From the IMG/VR virus record IMGVR_UViG_2563366998_000006: a stretch of DNA of 41,043 bases. The stretch is one strand, 5' to 3'. Shown piece after piece: positions 1,419 through 8,130 of the stretch. Position 1 is the stretch's first letter. The number at the start of each line of letters is the position of its first letter. Under the pieces are notes generated by a model that saw only the letters and a list, made by a program, of their open reading frames with translations, searched no databases and was not told the origin of the DNA. This DNA comes from a virus. Lineage: Duplodnaviria > Heunggongvirae > Uroviricota > Caudoviricetes. A program made the translations under genes and the position numbers.

Positions 1419-2489
1419 TTATTTGATTTCAATTTTGTCCCACTCCCTGCCTCTGTCATCACGATACTGTGATGCCATGGTGTCCGACTTATGCCCGAGA
1501 AGATGTTGAGCAAACTTATCGCTTATCTGCTTCTCATAGAGTCTTGCAGACAAACTGCGCAACTCGTGAAAGGTAGGCGGATCCCCTTCGAAGGAAAGAC
1601 CTGATGCTTTTCGTGCGCGCATAAAATACCTTGATACTGTGCCGGATGAAAGCGGTTCGCGACGAGTAGATGCAATTATGGTTTCTCCGCCAAGAATCTC
1701 TTTGCATTTATCAAGTGTTTCCTTCATTGATATTCCGAGAGCATCAACATGCAATGCTGTTGGGATGGCAATTTTTACGCCTGTTTTGCTTTGCTCGACA
1801 TAAAGATATCCATCTACGATATCAGACCACTTCATTTCGCATAAATCACCAACTCGCTGCCCGGTAACAACAGCCAGTTCCATTGCAAGTCTAAGCCAAC
1901 ATGGTGATGATTCTGCTGCTTGATAAATTTTCAGGTATTCGTCAGCCGTAAGTCTTGATCTCCTTACCTCTGATTTTGCTGCGCGAGTGGCAGCGACCGG
2001 GTTTGTTGTTATATGGCCTTCAGCTATTGCCTCTCGGAATGCATCGCTCAGTGTTGATCTGATTAACTTGGCTGACGCCGCCTTGCCCTCGTCTATGTAT
2101 CCATTGAGCATTGCTGCAATTTCTTTTGTGGTGATGTCTTCAAGTGGAACATCAGGTAGCCCCCTCCTTATTGCTTTAATTTTGCTCATGTAATTTATAA
2201 GTGTCTTCTGCTTGATTCCTCTGCTGGCGAGGATTTTTTCGTAGCGATCAAGCCATGAATGTAACGTAACAGAATTATCACTGTTGATTCTCGCTGTCAG
2301 AGGCTTGTGTTTGTGTCCTGAAAATAACTCAATGTTTGCCTGTATTGCTTCAGTAATTGCTATCCTCCTGTCTCTGCCTAATCCGAACTCTTTACCCGTC
2401 CTTGGGTCCCTGTAGCAGTAATATCCATTGTTTCTTATATAAAGGTTAGGGGGTAAATCCCGGCGCTCATGACTTCGCCTTCTTCCCAT
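1419..2489 (-). CDS. int: Lambda-type tyrosine integrase Int
   Basis: 356-aa translation (MGRRRSHERRDLPPNLYIRNNGYYCYRD...) essentially identical to phage lambda Int as recalled; adjacent to attL. Confidence 0.95.
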   Translation of the reverse strand: MGRRRSHERRDLPPNLYIRNNGYYCYRDPRTGKEFGLGRDRRIAITEAIQANIELFSGHKHKPLTARINSDNSVTLHSWLDRYEKILASRGIKQKTLINYMSKIKAIRRGLPDVPLEDITTKEIAAMLNGYIDEGKAASAKLIRSTLSDAFREAIAEGHITTNPVAATRAAKSEVRRSRLTADEYLKIYQAAESSPCWLRLAMELAVVTGQRVGDLCEMKWSDIVDGYLYVEQSKTGVKIAIPTALHVDALGISMKETLDKCKEILGGETIIASTRREPLSSGTVSRYFMRARKASGLSFEGDPPTFHELRSLSARLYEKQISDKFAQHLLGHKSDTMASQYRDDRGREWDKIEIK

Positions 2490-2685
2490 TTCTGATCCTC
2501 TTCAAAAGGCTACCTGTTACTGGTCGATTTAAGTCAACCTTTACCGCTGATTCGTGGAACAGATACTCTCTTCCATCCTTAACCGGAGGAGGGAATATCC
2601 TGCATTCGCGCACCCATCGACGAACTGTTTCAAGGCTTCTTGGGCGTCGCTGGCGAGCGTTCCACTCCTGAAGTGTCAAGTACAT
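2467..2685 (-). CDS. xis: Excisionase Xis
   Basis: Internal Met of the 102-aa ORF gives the 72-aa MYLTLQEWNARQRRPRSLETVRRWVRECRIFPPPVKDGREY... matching lambda Xis; 3' end overlaps int start as in lambda. Confidence 0.9.
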   Translation of the reverse strand: MYLTLQEWNARQRRPRSLETVRRWVRECRIFPPPVKDGREYLFHESAVKVDLNRPVTGSLLKRIRNGKKAKS

Positions 2686-2799
2686 CGCAAAGTCTCCGCA
2701 ATTACACGCAAGAAAAAGCCGCATTGATGCGGCGATGGTAGGTCTGGATATCATTGAGCAATGAACAGGCCTCATCGAGTGTGAGGCTGTATGGCTCTA

Positions 2800-3144
2800 T
2801 TATTTCACCTCTTGTTGTGACATTGTTGAAAAATGGATACCAGCTCGTTGCTGCCAGATGATCCAACCGAGAGTCATATCCCATGCCATGTATTCGTTAT
2901 CGCCGTTTTTTGCTCTCCGACGATCGACTGTTTTACCGAAACGCTTTTCCATAAATAATTCATAGGCTGCGCGTTCATCTGGCTCAACTTCCAGAGATGC
3001 CAGTGCAATCCGTGCCAGTTCTAAATCATTTTCAAGCTCAGCGCGAATCTCAGCGAATGCACTCTGTGTTAAGGCGAACTCAATGCTCTGCACTTTATTC
3101 CGTGCGCGCTCAAGCAGTGCATGGTAGTTAATTTCGGTTGTCAT
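2800..3144 (-). CDS. Hypothetical early-left protein
   Basis: 114-aa ORF; ATG overlaps the stop of the upstream gene (ATGA), consistent with translational coupling; no family recognised. Confidence 0.5.
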   Translation of the reverse strand: MTTEINYHALLERARNKVQSIEFALTQSAFAEIRAELENDLELARIALASLEVEPDERAAYELFMEKRFGKTVDRRRAKNGDNEYMAWDMTLGWIIWQQRAGIHFSTMSQQEVK

Positions 3145-4019
3145 ACCCCTACCTCTTCGAATTCCAATTCCAATTGATCACCCCAGATTTCACATGACTC
3201 TGAACACGAGCCGGTATCGAATCGCCTGGCCTGTACCATCGCCTGATACAAATTTCTGTAGTCGCTGTTGGCAGACATTCTGGCAATTCCGTCAAGCGTC
3301 AGGTGACCACGGTACATAATGTCTTTACCTGTTCTGCGATGACCATCCCTGACGTGTTTGCCTGTAACCAGCTCATTAAAAACTCGCATCAGACCTGGTT
3401 CGTCTTTACATGCAAGCCCCAGCTTTTGCGTTGACTTTTTGATGCAGAAAACACAGTTCCCGAGATGCTCCGGGATTTGCAAATCAAAAGGTTGTTTTCG
3501 CCACCACCGGATAACATCCGACTTATCAAAATCTGACAGCTCGGCAAGATACCGGACGCCCGATTTCGGTTTCAGCCTACGGGGTTCGTCTGCACGAATA
3601 CCCAGCCATGTGATGTAATTACCTCGCCCGAAATGGTTATCGCAGTATTTCGTGAAAGGGATGAGTTTTAGCCTGTCAGTACAGAACGCGCCGCCGATGT
3701 ATGGCGTGCCGTACTTTTTAACCATGTCCATAAACGGTTTAAGCACCGGCATTCGTGTCTGAATATCCGTTGGCTCCCATTCTGTATAACCATTTGGCTG
3801 CCCAAGCTCAGGATTTATATCGACCTGTAACACAGTTAGTGGTATGTCCCAGAACTTCACAACCTCCCGGATAAAGCGGTATGTCAGCGGATGTTCGCAA
3901 CCGGTATCCATAAAGATGTAGCAGACGTTATTGCCAGCCTTTCTTTGTTCTTCCATCAGGTGAACAAGATATGCGGATGTTCTCCCGCCAGAAAAACTAA
4001 CTACATGAGTTATGCACAT
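3141..4019 (-). CDS. PAPS-reductase-family (PP-loop ATP pyrophosphatase-like) protein
   Basis: 292 aa; N-terminal PP-loop-like motif VVSFSGGRTSAY; family is common in lambdoid early regions. Confidence 0.75.
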   Translation of the reverse strand: MCITHVVSFSGGRTSAYLVHLMEEQRKAGNNVCYIFMDTGCEHPLTYRFIREVVKFWDIPLTVLQVDINPELGQPNGYTEWEPTDIQTRMPVLKPFMDMVKKYGTPYIGGAFCTDRLKLIPFTKYCDNHFGRGNYITWLGIRADEPRRLKPKSGVRYLAELSDFDKSDVIRWWRKQPFDLQIPEHLGNCVFCIKKSTQKLGLACKDEPGLMRVFNELVTGKHVRDGHRRTGKDIMYRGHLTLDGIARMSANSDYRNLYQAMVQARRFDTGSCSESCEIWGDQLELEFEEVGV

Positions 4020-4546
4020 TTGCGTAATTCCGATAACTCGTTGAAGCGTTCCATAAACATCCCGTAGGCATGGCCCGGTGCCAGTGGAATAACTTTGAAC
4101 ATCTCTGTTGCCGGGATACCTTCCAGTACTGGCCAGAAAGAGCCATCATCAAGCCCGAGATCGCGGCGTTCAGTTGCCAGCATGATGAGATCGGCATATT
4201 TCACGGGTGTACTCATAACTGGGGGTAACCCGTATTTCTCACGGATTACGGCGTCTATTTTTTCTTCCATCCGTTTATAGTCAGGAAGAAGGCGTTTCAG
4301 TGGCGCCGGGATGTCCTGGCAATACGCTTCTGTTGCATCATGCATTAACGCTTCAAAAGCAAATTCCTGCGGCACCAGTTGGCTGCAAAGCACCGCATGT
4401 TGGGCGACGCTGTAGAAATGTGAAAGATGTCCTGCAAAGCGACAGATATTTGAAAGGGAAACCGCGATATCGTTAATAACGATGTCGTCTTGATTTATCT
4501 TGTCATAATAAAAATGCTTCCCGGAAAAAGTTTTAATAAATGACAT
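4010..4546 (-). CDS. HD-domain phosphohydrolase (YfdR/YfbR-like 5'-deoxynucleotidase family)
   Basis: Start placed at the internal ATG (MSFIKTF...) preceded by GGAGA; 178 aa; H...HD motif (AQHAV...LMHDATEAY). Confidence 0.7.
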   Translation of the reverse strand: MSFIKTFSGKHFYYDKINQDDIVINDIAVSLSNICRFAGHLSHFYSVAQHAVLCSQLVPQEFAFEALMHDATEAYCQDIPAPLKRLLPDYKRMEEKIDAVIREKYGLPPVMSTPVKYADLIMLATERRDLGLDDGSFWPVLEGIPATEMFKVIPLAPGHAYGMFMERFNELSELRKCA

Positions 4547-4673
4547 TTTGTTCTCCACGTATATGCGCTGCACCGCGCTGAATTCTGGTAAAAGGAAGTC
4601 CTCACCATCCGGCGATTATTGAGTTAATTACGTTTCCATAAATTCCCCCGCAGGGGCATTTGCAGTAATGAAA

Positions 4674-5498
4674 TCAGGCGGTGAAAGTACCAATAAAGGT
4701 TTCTACTTTGCTGTCTTTGAATTTCTCAACAAGCAGATCACGAAATTCGTTAGCCATTTCTTCCTGCACCGCTTCCAGCTGAATAATGCGCAGAACCAGT
4801 ACAGGACGATCGCCAGTGATAATGCTGAGGCGTAATTTAAATGGACGTTCTTTCAGGCCTTCAAACGGAACGCATTTAAATTCAAATGCCACTGGCATAA
4901 TGTCTTTGGTCTTCGCTTCGACAGACTCCATCAGGGAGCGTTTGCCGCTGAAGTCATTATCTTCAAAATCAGCGGTCTGGTTCGCTTCAATTGTGATTTT
5001 ACGGATAGCCGCCGCCGCTTTGGTTGCCTGAATGGCGTCACCATTAGCATCAAAGCCCACAAGGTAGTCGGCCCAGTCTTCAATCCATTCTGCCAGTGAT
5101 TTCTGGGAGTTACGCTCGCCATTAACAGACAACAGAGCAGAGAACGGTGCTGTCTTTTTCAGTTTGAGAGTGGCGGTGTTATCTGCGTGACCTGGTTCAT
5201 CAATAGTACCCAGGTTAAGCACACTGACGGCACGCATATTATCAGCATCGATAAAGCAGCGGGTGCCTTCATCTGCAAGATCTTTAGAATAACGGGTAAA
5301 GTCATCGATGCTGGCAGTGGAAAGCGCACCACGGAAACGGAAGCGATTTAAATTAAATTTTTCCAGATCATGAATGCGGAAATTCTCAGGCAATGCCACA
5401 GCATCGGCACCAATCTTACTGATAATTTCATTAACACCCTGAGCAGAAATAAGGGCATGGATTTGATTAAATGCGGTTGCGTCTAAGTTTTGAGACAT
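4674..5498 (-). CDS. YfdQ-like (DUF2303-type) prophage protein
   Basis: 274-aa [23 protein letters not shown]...; recalled similarity to CPS-53 prophage YfdQ. Confidence 0.65.
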
Positions 5499-5563
5499 AA
5501 TAAGTCCTCACTATATTAAGATATTCAGTGATGAGATAAATAATCGGTTAATTAAGAACGATA

Positions 5564-5926
5564 TTAATGACCTGCTGCGCGGAGTTTTCCGTCAGGTTCA
5601 CCGGCAAGAGTCAGTAATTGTCCCTGGTCTTCCTGCAGAATAGTCAGGCGACCACCGCGATTGACATACATCGGCGTTTCGGTGGTGTCTTCTTCGGAAA
5701 TTTTCCCGCGGTTAGTCGGGCGAACATATGAGAGTTTGTGTTTGATTTTCACACGGTTTTCATCAAATGGTTCGATTTCCAGGTTGAGTGAGACCTTACC
5801 TTTGGTTTTCGTGTTCATCACACCGGAAGCGACTTCACTGAGAACTGCGCCGATTTTGGTTTCAAATACGCCGCCGTCCAGCTCCCCGATAAATGCCTGC
5901 ACATCAGTACTGCGTTCGCTAGCCAT
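5564..5926 (-). CDS. YfdP-like hypothetical prophage protein
   Basis: Start at the internal ATG (MASERSTDVQAF...) preceded by GAGGAG; 120 aa; the upstream in-frame extension is Arg/Cys/Pro-rich and looks non-coding. Confidence 0.6.
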   Translation of the reverse strand: MASERSTDVQAFIGELDGGVFETKIGAVLSEVASGVMNTKTKGKVSLNLEIEPFDENRVKIKHKLSYVRPTNRGKISEEDTTETPMYVNRGGRLTILQEDQGQLLTLAGEPDGKLRAAGH

Positions 5927-5974
5927 TTTGCTGCTCCTCATCATATCGACCCTGCAAGGTCGGTTAGTTTCTCC

Positions 5975-6063
5975 ACAAAACAGAGAAGAACACCTGCGGT
6001 GACTGCCGCCCGGATGGATTGGGTTATGAGCCCGTCGTCCGGTGATGCTCTTCTCTGTTTTGT
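5975..6063. repeat. Perfect 15-bp inverted repeat (ACAAAACAGAGAAGA / TCTTCTCTGTTTTGT) enclosing a 59-nt GC-rich loop; part of a structured non-coding block
   Basis: Arms at 5975-5989 and 6049-6063 are exact reverse complements; a further 9-bp inverted repeat CGGTACCAG/CTGGTACCG lies at 6072-6108. Confidence 0.6.
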
Positions 6064-6327
6064 AAAAAGGACGGTACCAGCCGGAAGCAAGGGTACAAAC
6101 TGGTACCGCCAGGACTACACACAGCATAAAGTTGTGGTGCCGGGTGCCTCCCGGTGCCTGGCGAAGGTTGCACACCAGGCGGGTGGGTATCCACAGAAGG
6201 TCGACTGTCAGCCTCAACCTTAACCCGCGTGCGCTGAGCCGCATTCACCACAACGCTAAGGATTCTCTCTGGTTGAAAATACTTAGCTGTTATGTGCCTG
6301 CTTTTAGCCACATCAGGCGAGGTGGAC

Positions 6328-6379
6328 CTGGTTATTCCCCAACAACAAGGATTCGGTTAATCTGGTTATCCCCAACAAC
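6328..6379. repeat. Direct repeats CTGGTTAT(T)CCCCAACAAC x2 upstream of the orphan plus-strand gene (putative regulator-binding sites)
   Basis: Copies at 6328-6346 and 6362-6379, ending 16 bp before the ATG at 6395. Confidence 0.5.
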
Positions 6380-6394
6380 GCAAAAGGAAAAGAA

Positions 6395-6829
6395 ATGTCC
6401 GGTAATATCTATACGCTGTACAAATCCCACTGTGAAAATGTTGGAAAGTATCGGGGCATTGAAATCAGTGGGGTAGTGTCATCAGTCGAAATAAGCAAAG
6501 TTGAATCAAGGGCAACATTACTTACTCTTCTGGACCTTGTCTTAAATGAGCACCGGAAGAAATTCGGCACACCCTATAATCAGTTGAATGGGAAAAAGGC
6601 TCTGGTTCACCTTATTCTGATGAAGCATCACTGGATGCCAAAACAGATTAATGAGATGAAATTTGATGAACTTCTTCTTTCAATTCAGGATGAACTCACG
6701 CTTGATAAAATAAGTGTAACCGCCCAGAAATTTTTAGATTATCGAGACTGGAGATCACAAATTCATCACTTTGATGATTTTGACGAAAATGAATGGGATC
6801 CTAATTTGTCTGCACAATATCTAAAGTAA
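6395..6829 (+). CDS. Hypothetical AT-rich orphan protein (accessory gene antisense to the early-left operon)
   Basis: 144-aa ORF with AAGGA RBS 7 nt upstream; visibly AT-rich compared with its neighbours; acidic C-terminus; no family recognised. Confidence 0.5.
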   Translation: MSGNIYTLYKSHCENVGKYRGIEISGVVSSVEISKVESRATLLTLLDLVLNEHRKKFGTPYNQLNGKKALVHLILMKHHWMPKQINEMKFDELLLSIQDELTLDKISVTAQKFLDYRDWRSQIHHFDDFDENEWDPNLSAQYLK

Positions 6830-7007
6830 CATCCTGTGATAAAACCGTGATTTCCTGATCCAGTTTTTTTAAGGAGTCTATTGTTTCCTGTCGATAAGAC
6901 AGCACTTCACGAAGCTGGTTTATAGCTGCCAGCTTCTTTGTCATCCACTCATAAATTTCCTCATCTGTGTAGCCAGGCGCGACGATTTTTGGTTCTGTTT
7001 TGTGCAT
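6801..7007 (-). CDS. Hypothetical small protein, first ORF of the leftward early operon
   Basis: 68 aa from the internal ATG (MHKTEPKIV...) with strong RBS GAGGAGG; 3' end overlaps the 6395-6829 gene convergently. Confidence 0.45.
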   Translation of the reverse strand: MHKTEPKIVAPGYTDEEIYEWMTKKLAAINQLREVLSYRQETIDSLKKLDQEITVLSQDVTLDIVQTN

Positions 7008-7067
7008 TTCACACCTCCTCAAGTTATCAGTTACTTGTTGATGGGGACCAGATTGTTAAAGAGCGAA

Positions 7068-7090
7068 GCGTCCTATAGGGCGCTTTTTTT
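7068..7090 (+). terminator. Intrinsic terminator-like hairpin plus T7 run
   Basis: GCGTCC-TATA-GGGCGC stem-loop (one G-U pair) followed by TTTTTTT on the plus strand. Confidence 0.5.
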
Positions 7091-7263: not shown

Positions 7264-7300
7264 TTGCGAGATATGCAAGTAATATTTGCGAAATATGCAA
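7264..7300. promoter_or_regulatory. OL-type operator pair (15-bp sites TTGCGAGATATGCAA and TTGCGAAATATGCAA), presumed pL region
   Basis: Two near-identical 15-bp imperfect palindromes at 7264-7278 and 7286-7300, sharing the TTGCG...GCAA pattern with the sites between cI and cro. Confidence 0.6.
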
Positions 7301-8067: not shown

Positions 8068-8130
8068 TTGCGTGATAAGCAAATCAACTTGCGCAAAATA
8101 ATTGCGTGAAATAACATGCATAACGCGCAA
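8068..8130. promoter_or_regulatory. OR-type operator cluster between cI and cro (presumed pRM/pR region)
   Basis: TTGCGTGATAAGCAA (8068-8082), TTGCGCAA (8089-8096), TTGCGTGAAATAACA (8102-8116) and reverse-orientation TTGCGCGTTATGCAT (8116-8130). Confidence 0.6.

Follow-up and report, generated by a model that had tools for sequence, protein, structure and literature searches.

What a compact run of leftward-transcribed genes does for its phage is the question raised by positions 3141–5926 of the viral record IMGVR_UViG_2563366998_000006 (IMG/VR; 41,043 nt, the whole of which is referred to here as the window). An earlier note, made from the sequence alone, had read these genes as a block of nucleotide-metabolism functions standing in place of recombination genes. 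Four minus-strand open reading frames (ORFs) fill the interval exactly. The explanation that we favour, to which we give an even chance, is that the block is a cassette of the CPS-53/SfV type, consisting of yfdP, yfdQ, yfdR, a variable slot and yfdT, with two independent parts, one for the takeover of host replication and one for counter-defence. The cassette belongs to the leftward early operon, where it has the immunity region on one side and xis-int on the other, and its variable slot is occupied by an orthologue of lambda NinC instead of the DUF551 gene yfdS.

The first gene of the run, yfdP (120 aa; 5564–5926, minus strand), encodes a protein with 99.2 % identity to its counterpart in the Escherichia coli K-12 prophage CPS-53 and a match to phrog_204; its homologues all carry PF27127 in a precomputed domain table. 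The product of yfdQ (274 aa; 4674–5498, minus strand) is 99.3 % identical to the K-12 protein and aligns with Pfam PF10065 (DUF2303) almost end to end (residues 8–272 on profile positions 3–269 of 269, E value 1.7e-92), in agreement with the earlier description of these two proteins as YfdP/YfdQ-like. The third gene, yfdR (178 aa; 4010–4546, minus strand), is assigned a start at 4546 by PGAP, with an alternative GTG start at 4573, and encodes an HD-domain 5′-deoxynucleotidase/DnaA-binding protein that is 98.3 % identical to K-12 YfdR over 178 aa. Its designation as an HD-domain hydrolase is borne out by phrog_318 (4.5e-111), by an HD motif that reads as intact in the translation (H50, H69-D70, E73 and D119) and by similarity to the HD protein of PDB entry 2gz4 (1.9e-13); the Pfam YfbR-like score fell slightly under its cut-off. 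The NinC-like gene follows (292 aa; 3141–4019, minus strand), and behind it lies a yfdT-like gene (114 aa; 2800–3144, minus strand; phrog_660; 84 % identity to K-12 YfdT, C-terminal 81 aa), a fifth member of the run that the description of four genes had omitted. The run had also been called translationally coupled, and this applies to yfdR/ninC, which overlap by 10 nt, and to ninC/yfdT, which overlap as ATGA, but not to yfdP-yfdQ and yfdQ-yfdR, which are separated by gaps of 65 and 127 nt, respectively. In the 127-nt gap, a search for a structured RNA or terminator turned up nothing in Rfam and no more than a hairpin of 4 bp (CCCC/GGGG).

Viewed simply as a piece of genome, the block is nothing new; it is an already known, annotated accessory cassette composed mostly of K-12 genes and partly studied in K-12. 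PGAP annotates the same block in hundreds of E. coli genomes, under the labels ‘protein YfdP’, ‘YfdQ family protein’, ‘5′-deoxynucleotidase’ and ‘phosphoadenosine phosphosulfate reductase family protein’. Phages SfV and SfIV have homologues (SfV orf28–33; PMC4776307 lists ORFs 29–31 as homologues of YfdQRST). At the DNA level, K-12 and SfIV are homologous to the window from ~5945–6400 down to 4012, at the yfdR stop codon, and again from 3009 onwards, within yfdT; the 5945–4012 stretch has 97 % DNA identity to the CPS-53/SfV-type cluster. The intervening segment (3010–4011, delimited by these breakpoints and not assigned a strand) comprises ninC and the 5′ 45 codons of the yfdT-like gene, and its 1002 bp stand in for the 450-bp segment of yfdS and the yfdT start in K-12 and SfIV. 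A Shiga toxin (Stx) phage, Lys12581Vzw, shares only 4021–3132 of the region. This is a clean exchange of one mosaic cassette for another, made at the edge of a gene.

The arrangement was counted in complete E. coli genomes. Of 5426 such genomes, 2966 have DNA of the yfdR part of our junction query, 283 have the yfdR-ninC junction and 429 have a NinC-like gene of the window type, including 72 places on plasmids. The plasmid genes have ~91 % DNA identity (e.g. NZ_CP067430.1, 7822–8689; NZ_CP077484.1, 497–1364), at least one of them has an ead/Ea22-like neighbour, and the plasmids are ~93–100 kb among those listed; they are probably phage-plasmids. A further variant, protein P0261 (294-aa cluster), combines DUF551 (PF04448, the domain of YfdS) with PAPS_reduct and is 86 % identical, along 88 % of its length, to the NinC-like protein of the window; recombination between the two genes that alternate in the slot behind yfdR seems to have generated this chimera. 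We also considered whether yfdS might be a truncated ninC and rejected this, as yfdS encodes a DUF551 protein and BLASTP of NinC against K-12 YfdS returned no match.

The separability of these genes bears directly on whether they form one nucleotide-metabolism block, as had been proposed. In a single pathway of nucleotide metabolism or DNA hypermodification, the HD protein would remove a canonical deoxynucleoside monophosphate (dNMP), the PP-loop protein together with YfdP/YfdQ would build a modified nucleotide or base, and the virion DNA would be chemically altered, as in the S-2L DatZ/PurZ or 7-deazaguanine systems. Such a pathway would suit the HD and PP-loop domains, both of which are nucleotide-handling folds, as well as the overlaps of yfdR, ninC and yfdT, which are probably co-translated, and the renewed co-occurrence of yfdP/yfdQ with a NinC-like gene in Stx phages. 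However, the genes occur independently of each other, which argues against it: K-12, SfV and SfIV carry yfdPQR with yfdS and without NinC, while lambda (in its nin region) and other lambdoid prophages carry NinC directly after NinB and without yfdPQR. In addition, the Stx phage has an unrelated ORF of 147 aa where the HD gene would be, the stop codon of yfdR is the precise point of the cassette junction, no PurZ, QueC/D/E, DpdA or thymidylate-synthase-like genes are annotated in the prophage, and the published nucleotide affinities of YfdR are low. We therefore regard a single pathway as unlikely and do not retain the idea of one metabolic block.

For lambda NinC, the counterpart of the protein encoded in the variable slot, the literature that we searched offered nothing on experimental function beyond listings. 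The window protein is 79 % identical to lambda NinC over 285 of its 292 aa and 93 % identical to the Stx-phage copy, so it is an orthologue of a lambda protein and not foreign to lambda. Its assignment to the PP-loop, phosphoadenosine phosphosulfate (PAPS)-reductase family with an SGGRTS motif was correct: the protein carries SFSGGRTSAY, scores 35.2 bits against Pfam PF01507 PAPS_reduct (cut-off 22.5; residues 5–71 only) and matches phrog_424 (9.5e-91) and phrog_33262 (1.8e-90). An alignment of 24 homologues, down to 51 % identity, revealed as invariant SGGRxS, DTG, C113, C126, GNC189xxC192 and C272-SES-C276-E, and the GNCxxC motif was present in 117 of 117 full-length NinC-family representatives recovered by an exhaustive profile search. 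From these motifs, six invariant cysteines among them, we infer a PP-loop ATP-pyrophosphatase that has a metal or iron–sulfur (Fe–S) site as well as a C-terminal cysteine pair.

Membership of this family could be taken to mean that the protein is a genuine CysH-type reductase of PAPS or adenosine phosphosulfate (APS), carried as an auxiliary metabolic gene that would boost the cysteine supply of the host. Pfam PAPS_reduct is indeed over threshold, PHROG and PGAP both use the name ‘phosphoadenosine phosphosulfate reductase’, and PAPS/APS reductases in the PDB are the only solved sequence relatives. The similarity to these solved enzymes, however, is limited to approximately positions 3–99 of the protein in the PDB profile search, the NCBIfam CysH equivalog returned 20.1 bits against a curated cut-off of 154, and the C-terminus reads GSCSESCEIW, whereas the catalytic C-terminal motif of CysH is of the ECGLH type. 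The best match in PADLOC is SspD (1.2e-14), which outscores any CysH model and is followed by BrxP (2.8e-4) and DndC (6e-3), and fusions with DNA adenine methyltransferases recur within the family. On the grounds of partial coverage, the missed cut-off and the CSESCEIW terminus, we rejected the protein as a true CysH, and a role in cysteine supply is very improbable.

The methyltransferase fusions point towards DNA. Among the eight longest NinC-family representatives, five carry Dam (PF05869), on the N-terminal side in two and on the C-terminal side in three, and a sixth is fused to a D12-class adenine methyltransferase. Methyltransferase genes also occur as neighbours: Salmonella phage Oslo has the order NinB, DNA methyltransferase, NinC, and a P2-like Gilliamella prophage has the order D12 methyltransferase, C5 methyltransferase, NinC-like. 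The window protein is 55 % identical to the PAPS domain of Vibrio phage 44E38.1 p0018 (283 aa, E value 2e-110), a homologue that offers the nearest experimental foothold. When p0018 and p0019 were moved together into a related Vibrio phage, the recipient gained growth on a Dnd-carrying host (Piel et al. 2022; preprint 10.1101/2021.05.05.442762), and the p0018 determinant has been cited as anti-Dnd (PMC13551039). This homologue, taken with the fusions, suggests a counter-defence role for NinC. In such a role, the NinC-like protein would be a PP-loop ATP-pyrophosphatase with DndC/SspD-like Fe–S and thiol chemistry, as its cysteines hint; it would probably act on DNA, and the phage DNA would thereby escape phosphorothioate-sensing (Dnd/Ssp-type) or other modification-dependent restriction.

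Several observations weigh against the counter-defence part. The Vibrio transfer moved p0018, its Dam fusion and p0019 as one, such that the PAPS domain was not isolated (10.1101/2021.05.05.442762), and its result is compatible with either phage DNA modification or interference with DndFGH and does not say which. Similarity of the NinC-like protein to SspD, DndC and CysH spans its N-terminal half or less; for SspD, residues 5–152 align with positions 2–125 of the 277-position profile. In the prophage annotation, no methyltransferase is fused to or neighbours the NinC-like gene, and nowhere does it list an operon partner such as DndA/B/D/E, SspA/B/C or a BREX protein, be it a cysteine desulfurase, a DndD/SspC ATPase or DndE/SspB. 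Finally, lambda encodes NinC, yet to our knowledge lambda virion DNA has not been reported to contain phosphorothioate or a hypermodified base.

The remaining part of the cassette has been approached experimentally in K-12 by Noguchi and Katayama (PMC4776307). There, multicopy yfdQ and yfdR plus either yfdS or yfdT suppressed over-initiation mutants and blocked oriC initiation in the wild type, and extracts oversupplied with YfdQRST inhibited initiation in vitro. Purified YfdR bound DnaA, with DnaA Phe46 mattering for binding; yfdQ was genetically required for the DnaA-related phenotype, while yfdP was dispensable for the replication phenotype. The same study names YfdR a 5′-deoxynucleotidase and a structural homologue of YfbR with much lower nucleotide affinities. 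As Q, R and T are kept in the window at 84–99 % identity, these results can be carried over to it within their own limits. Once the phage is induced or infects, YfdR would be made together with YfdQ and YfdT, would bind DnaA domain I around Phe46 and would compete with DiaA and DnaB, such that initiation at the host oriC would be damped. This action was shown for the K-12 proteins, which are 98–99 % identical, under overexpression, and the role in the live phage is projected from it. YfdR may also hydrolyse dNMPs, for which its published in vitro affinities are low. A further parallel comes from the lambda exo-xis region, which is dispensable and is also linked to inhibition of host DNA replication (PMC10834534). 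Tempering the replication part, the DnaA/oriC evidence consists of multicopy or overexpression phenotypes and not of phage infection, strains deleted for yfdQRST showed no phenotype in replication, and in the authors' own view overexpression may have produced an artefact (PMC4776307).

The K-12 literature also offers a different role, in which the cassette benefits the lysogen and its expression from the prophage aids the host against oxidative, acid or alkylation stress and does not serve lytic growth. Deletions of yfdQ and yfdS in K-12 raise sensitivity to H2O2, and deletion of yfdQ raises sensitivity to methyl methanesulfonate (MMS) (reports cited in PMC4776307). The cassette also survives in the defective prophage CPS-53, and the presence of yfdR-region DNA in over half of the complete E. 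coli genomes, at the frequency given above, would be in keeping with such a benefit. Yet the reported stress phenotypes are weak, the trio is kept in the functional phages SfV and SfIV and in induced PhiR phages, and the genes share an operon with xis and int that has repressor-controlled operators upstream of them, so they are expected to be silent in a stable lysogen. A lysogen-benefit role is, on this balance, distinctly unlikely.

Returning to the two-part cassette, the earlier suggestion that the genes act on nucleotides or DNA early in infection, possibly as anti-defence, fits the binding of DnaA by YfdR, the anti-Dnd link of p0018 and the methyltransferase fusions, a support that is partial. 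A more specific version, which we put forward tentatively and consider possible but doubtful, would make the NinC family, lambda NinC included, a stand-alone, DNA-directed PP-loop/Fe–S enzyme that works with adenine methylation, whether by host Dam or by a fused or neighbouring phage methyltransferase, and that installs or mimics a sulfur-type or other DNA mark to defeat Dnd/Ssp-type restriction; separately, YfdP-YfdQ-YfdR would be a conserved three-protein device of many enterobacterial temperate phages that shuts off the host oriC via DnaA domain I.

Whether the cassette replaces recombination genes is a matter on which the window and its relatives give different impressions. The idea that it stands in place of exo/bet/gam is consistent with the prophage annotated in NZ_CP023142, which shares the block and has no annotated exo/bet/gam, RecET or Erf and only RusA, Int and Xis; the block's own proteins returned no match to a single-strand annealing protein (SSAP) or exonuclease in Pfam or PHROG. 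In Lys12581Vzw, however, the corresponding run lies directly downstream of a recombination module: its early-left region reads kil, abrB-like, gam-like, recT, exo, ssb, YfdP-like, YfdQ-like, the 147-aa ORF unrelated to the HD gene, NinC-like, ea22-like and DUF551, with 58 and 52 % identity to the window for YfdP-like and YfdQ-like, respectively. As the cassette thus coexists with, and follows, the recombination module of the Stx phage, we consider the block to be the equivalent of the lambda exo-xis accessory region, and the notion of replacement is corrected accordingly.

It could still be argued that YfdP/YfdQ provide an unrecognised recombination or annealing function that substitutes for Red/RecET in phages without them. 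No SSAP or exonuclease pair is annotated in the prophage, the yfdQ mutant is mildly MMS-sensitive and DUF2303 is widespread among phages of many phyla, all of which would suit such a function. The predicted models of YfdQ and YfdP, however, gave no informative fold match and no match to a recombinase fold, and Stx phages carry the two genes alongside recT/exo/gam, and we rejected the two as hidden recombinases; of the readings weighed here, this is the least probable. The AlphaFold2 model of YfdP consists of a long helix and a three-strand sheet and returned no match in a PDB fold search. The most conserved stretch of YfdP, residues 81–104 (TTETPMYVNRGGKLTILQEDQGQL), is for the most part located in a tail with predicted disorder (residues 90–105, pLDDT <50). 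Conservation of this kind, without predicted structure, is suggestive of a peptide motif for docking to a partner protein.

Variation behind the trio is not confined to E. coli. In Klebsiella-associated and Yersinia prophages, a YfdP-YfdQ-178-aa trio heads the same operon, with variable cargo behind it, including a ParB-like gene with another PAPS_reduct gene, methyltransferases and an Rv2179c-like exonuclease. On one Klebsiella-type prophage contig (L009, 7672–9732), a ParB-like gene (HTH_ParB) and a distinct 249-aa PAPS_reduct gene lie downstream of a YfdP-YfdQ-175-aa trio; the pair resembles the ParB + PAPS-reductase (IbrB/IbrA-like) pairs for which published work predicts a role in DNA modification. 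Genes of the PAPS-reductase family are therefore a recurrent cargo of the operon.

The surroundings of the cassette identify its carrier as an SfV/SfIV-like E. coli prophage at attλ. The first 1.3 kb of the window encode ybhC on the minus strand, and positions 2700–6400 have 100 % nucleotide identity to many E. coli chromosomes, e.g. NZ_CP023142, whose annotation shows the 40 kb around this stretch to be a prophage between ybhC and ybhB/bioA, the attλ site. The prophage encodes an HK97-type head, a contractile Mu-like tail, gtr O-antigen genes, RusA and Q, its immunity region is of the cI/cro/YmfL type, and among isolated phages its nearest relatives are SfIV, SfV, Kati and the PhiR phages (~97 % identity across the shared part). 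The leftward operon is closed by xis (2467–2685, minus strand) and a lambda-type integrase gene (int, 1419–2489, minus strand) beside ybhC, on the attλ side.

The early-left position that had been proposed for the block is supported at the other end of the operon. Just to the left of the cI-like gene lie the operator-like 15-mers TTGCGAGATATGCAA and TTGCGAAATATGCAA (7264–7300, minus strand), and a third operator-like copy was found at 8068–8082, inside the cI/cro interval. As the repeats match this third copy, they are indicative of a repressor-controlled leftward promoter upstream of the block, a putative OL/pL from which the leftward early operon would be driven. The first gene of the operon is a small ORF of 73 aa (6801–7022, minus strand; phrog_1744, 7.8e-35) that is annotated as hypothetical. 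Between it and yfdP lies a frameshifted hypothetical gene (5941–6284, minus strand), which PGAP lists as a pseudogene at 5941–6251 and which overlaps a sub-threshold hit to the Rfam family STnc100 (RF02076; 43.1 bits against a gathering threshold of 47, E value 5e-7, 6062–6284 on the minus strand, model positions 1–206 of 206). The ‘pseudogene’ may therefore really be a small RNA locus. On the opposite strand and inside the leftward early operon, an ECs1072-family phage-associated gene (6395–6829, plus strand; NCBIfam 5.4e-46) is followed by two plus-strand terminator-like hairpins (6911–6936 and 7065–7086), and looks like an independently transcribed moron.

At a distance from the cassette, between the Q antiterminator and the lysis genes, we observed a low-GC (0.34–0.37) two-gene cassette (13612–16996) that consists of an NA37-family nucleoid-associated protein (NAP) gene and a 404-aa ORF with no match in Pfam or PADLOC. 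The NAP gene is intact (391 aa) in NZ_CP023142 and is interrupted in the window by an IS5-like transposase gene (15980–16996; DDE_Tnp_1 + DUF772). NAP-sensor ‘PANGU’ abortive-infection systems with paired effectors have been described in a 2026 preprint (10.64898/2026.04.06.716658), and by analogy the two-gene cassette may be a disrupted, prophage-borne example.

What gives the block its value is that it raises two questions, both testable, on prophage genes that are very common. The first is the function of lambda NinC, for which the fusions to methyltransferases, together with the anti-Dnd finding in Vibrio, point to DNA-level counter-defence that can be tested directly in lambda. The second is whether, in the course of phage development, YfdPQR(T) stop the host from initiating replication, as overexpression in K-12 would suggest.

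Comparison with known systems places both parts of the cassette. The closest relative is the yfdP-yfdQ-yfdR-yfdS-yfdT cluster of K-12 CPS-53 (KpLE1), which has the same gene order and the same position upstream of xis; it differs in that the slot holds yfdS (DUF551) and not a NinC-type gene, in the first 45 codons of yfdT and in its location at argW, whereas the window prophage sits at attλ with a lambda-type integrase. Lambda NinC (Nin290) resembles the window protein in length (290 versus 292 aa), PP-loop and cysteine pattern, but is encoded after NinB in the rightward nin region, while the window gene follows yfdR in a leftward operon; in the prophage annotation of NZ_CP023142, the Q-proximal region contains RusA, KilA-N and DUF968 and neither NinB nor NinC.

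DndC, SspD and BrxP are ATP pyrophosphatases of the PAPS-reductase family that belong to DNA phosphorothioation systems; the NinC-like protein appears to resemble them in its PP-loop N-terminal half, to which the alignment is confined, and in a cysteine-rich C-terminal half. With 44E38.1 p0018, in which the PAPS-reductase domain is fused to Dam, homology extends across the whole PP-loop domain of 280 aa and includes all of the invariant cysteines; the window protein differs in ending at residue 292, without a Dam domain or an adjacent methyltransferase. Finally, although no sequence homology to the proteins of the lambda exo-xis region (orf60a, orf61, orf63, orf73, ea22 and ea8.5) was seen in the window, the cassette occupies the same place in the pL operon, between the early-left functions and xis, and in Stx phages the yfdP/yfdQ/NinC run stands beside ea22 and DUF551 genes.

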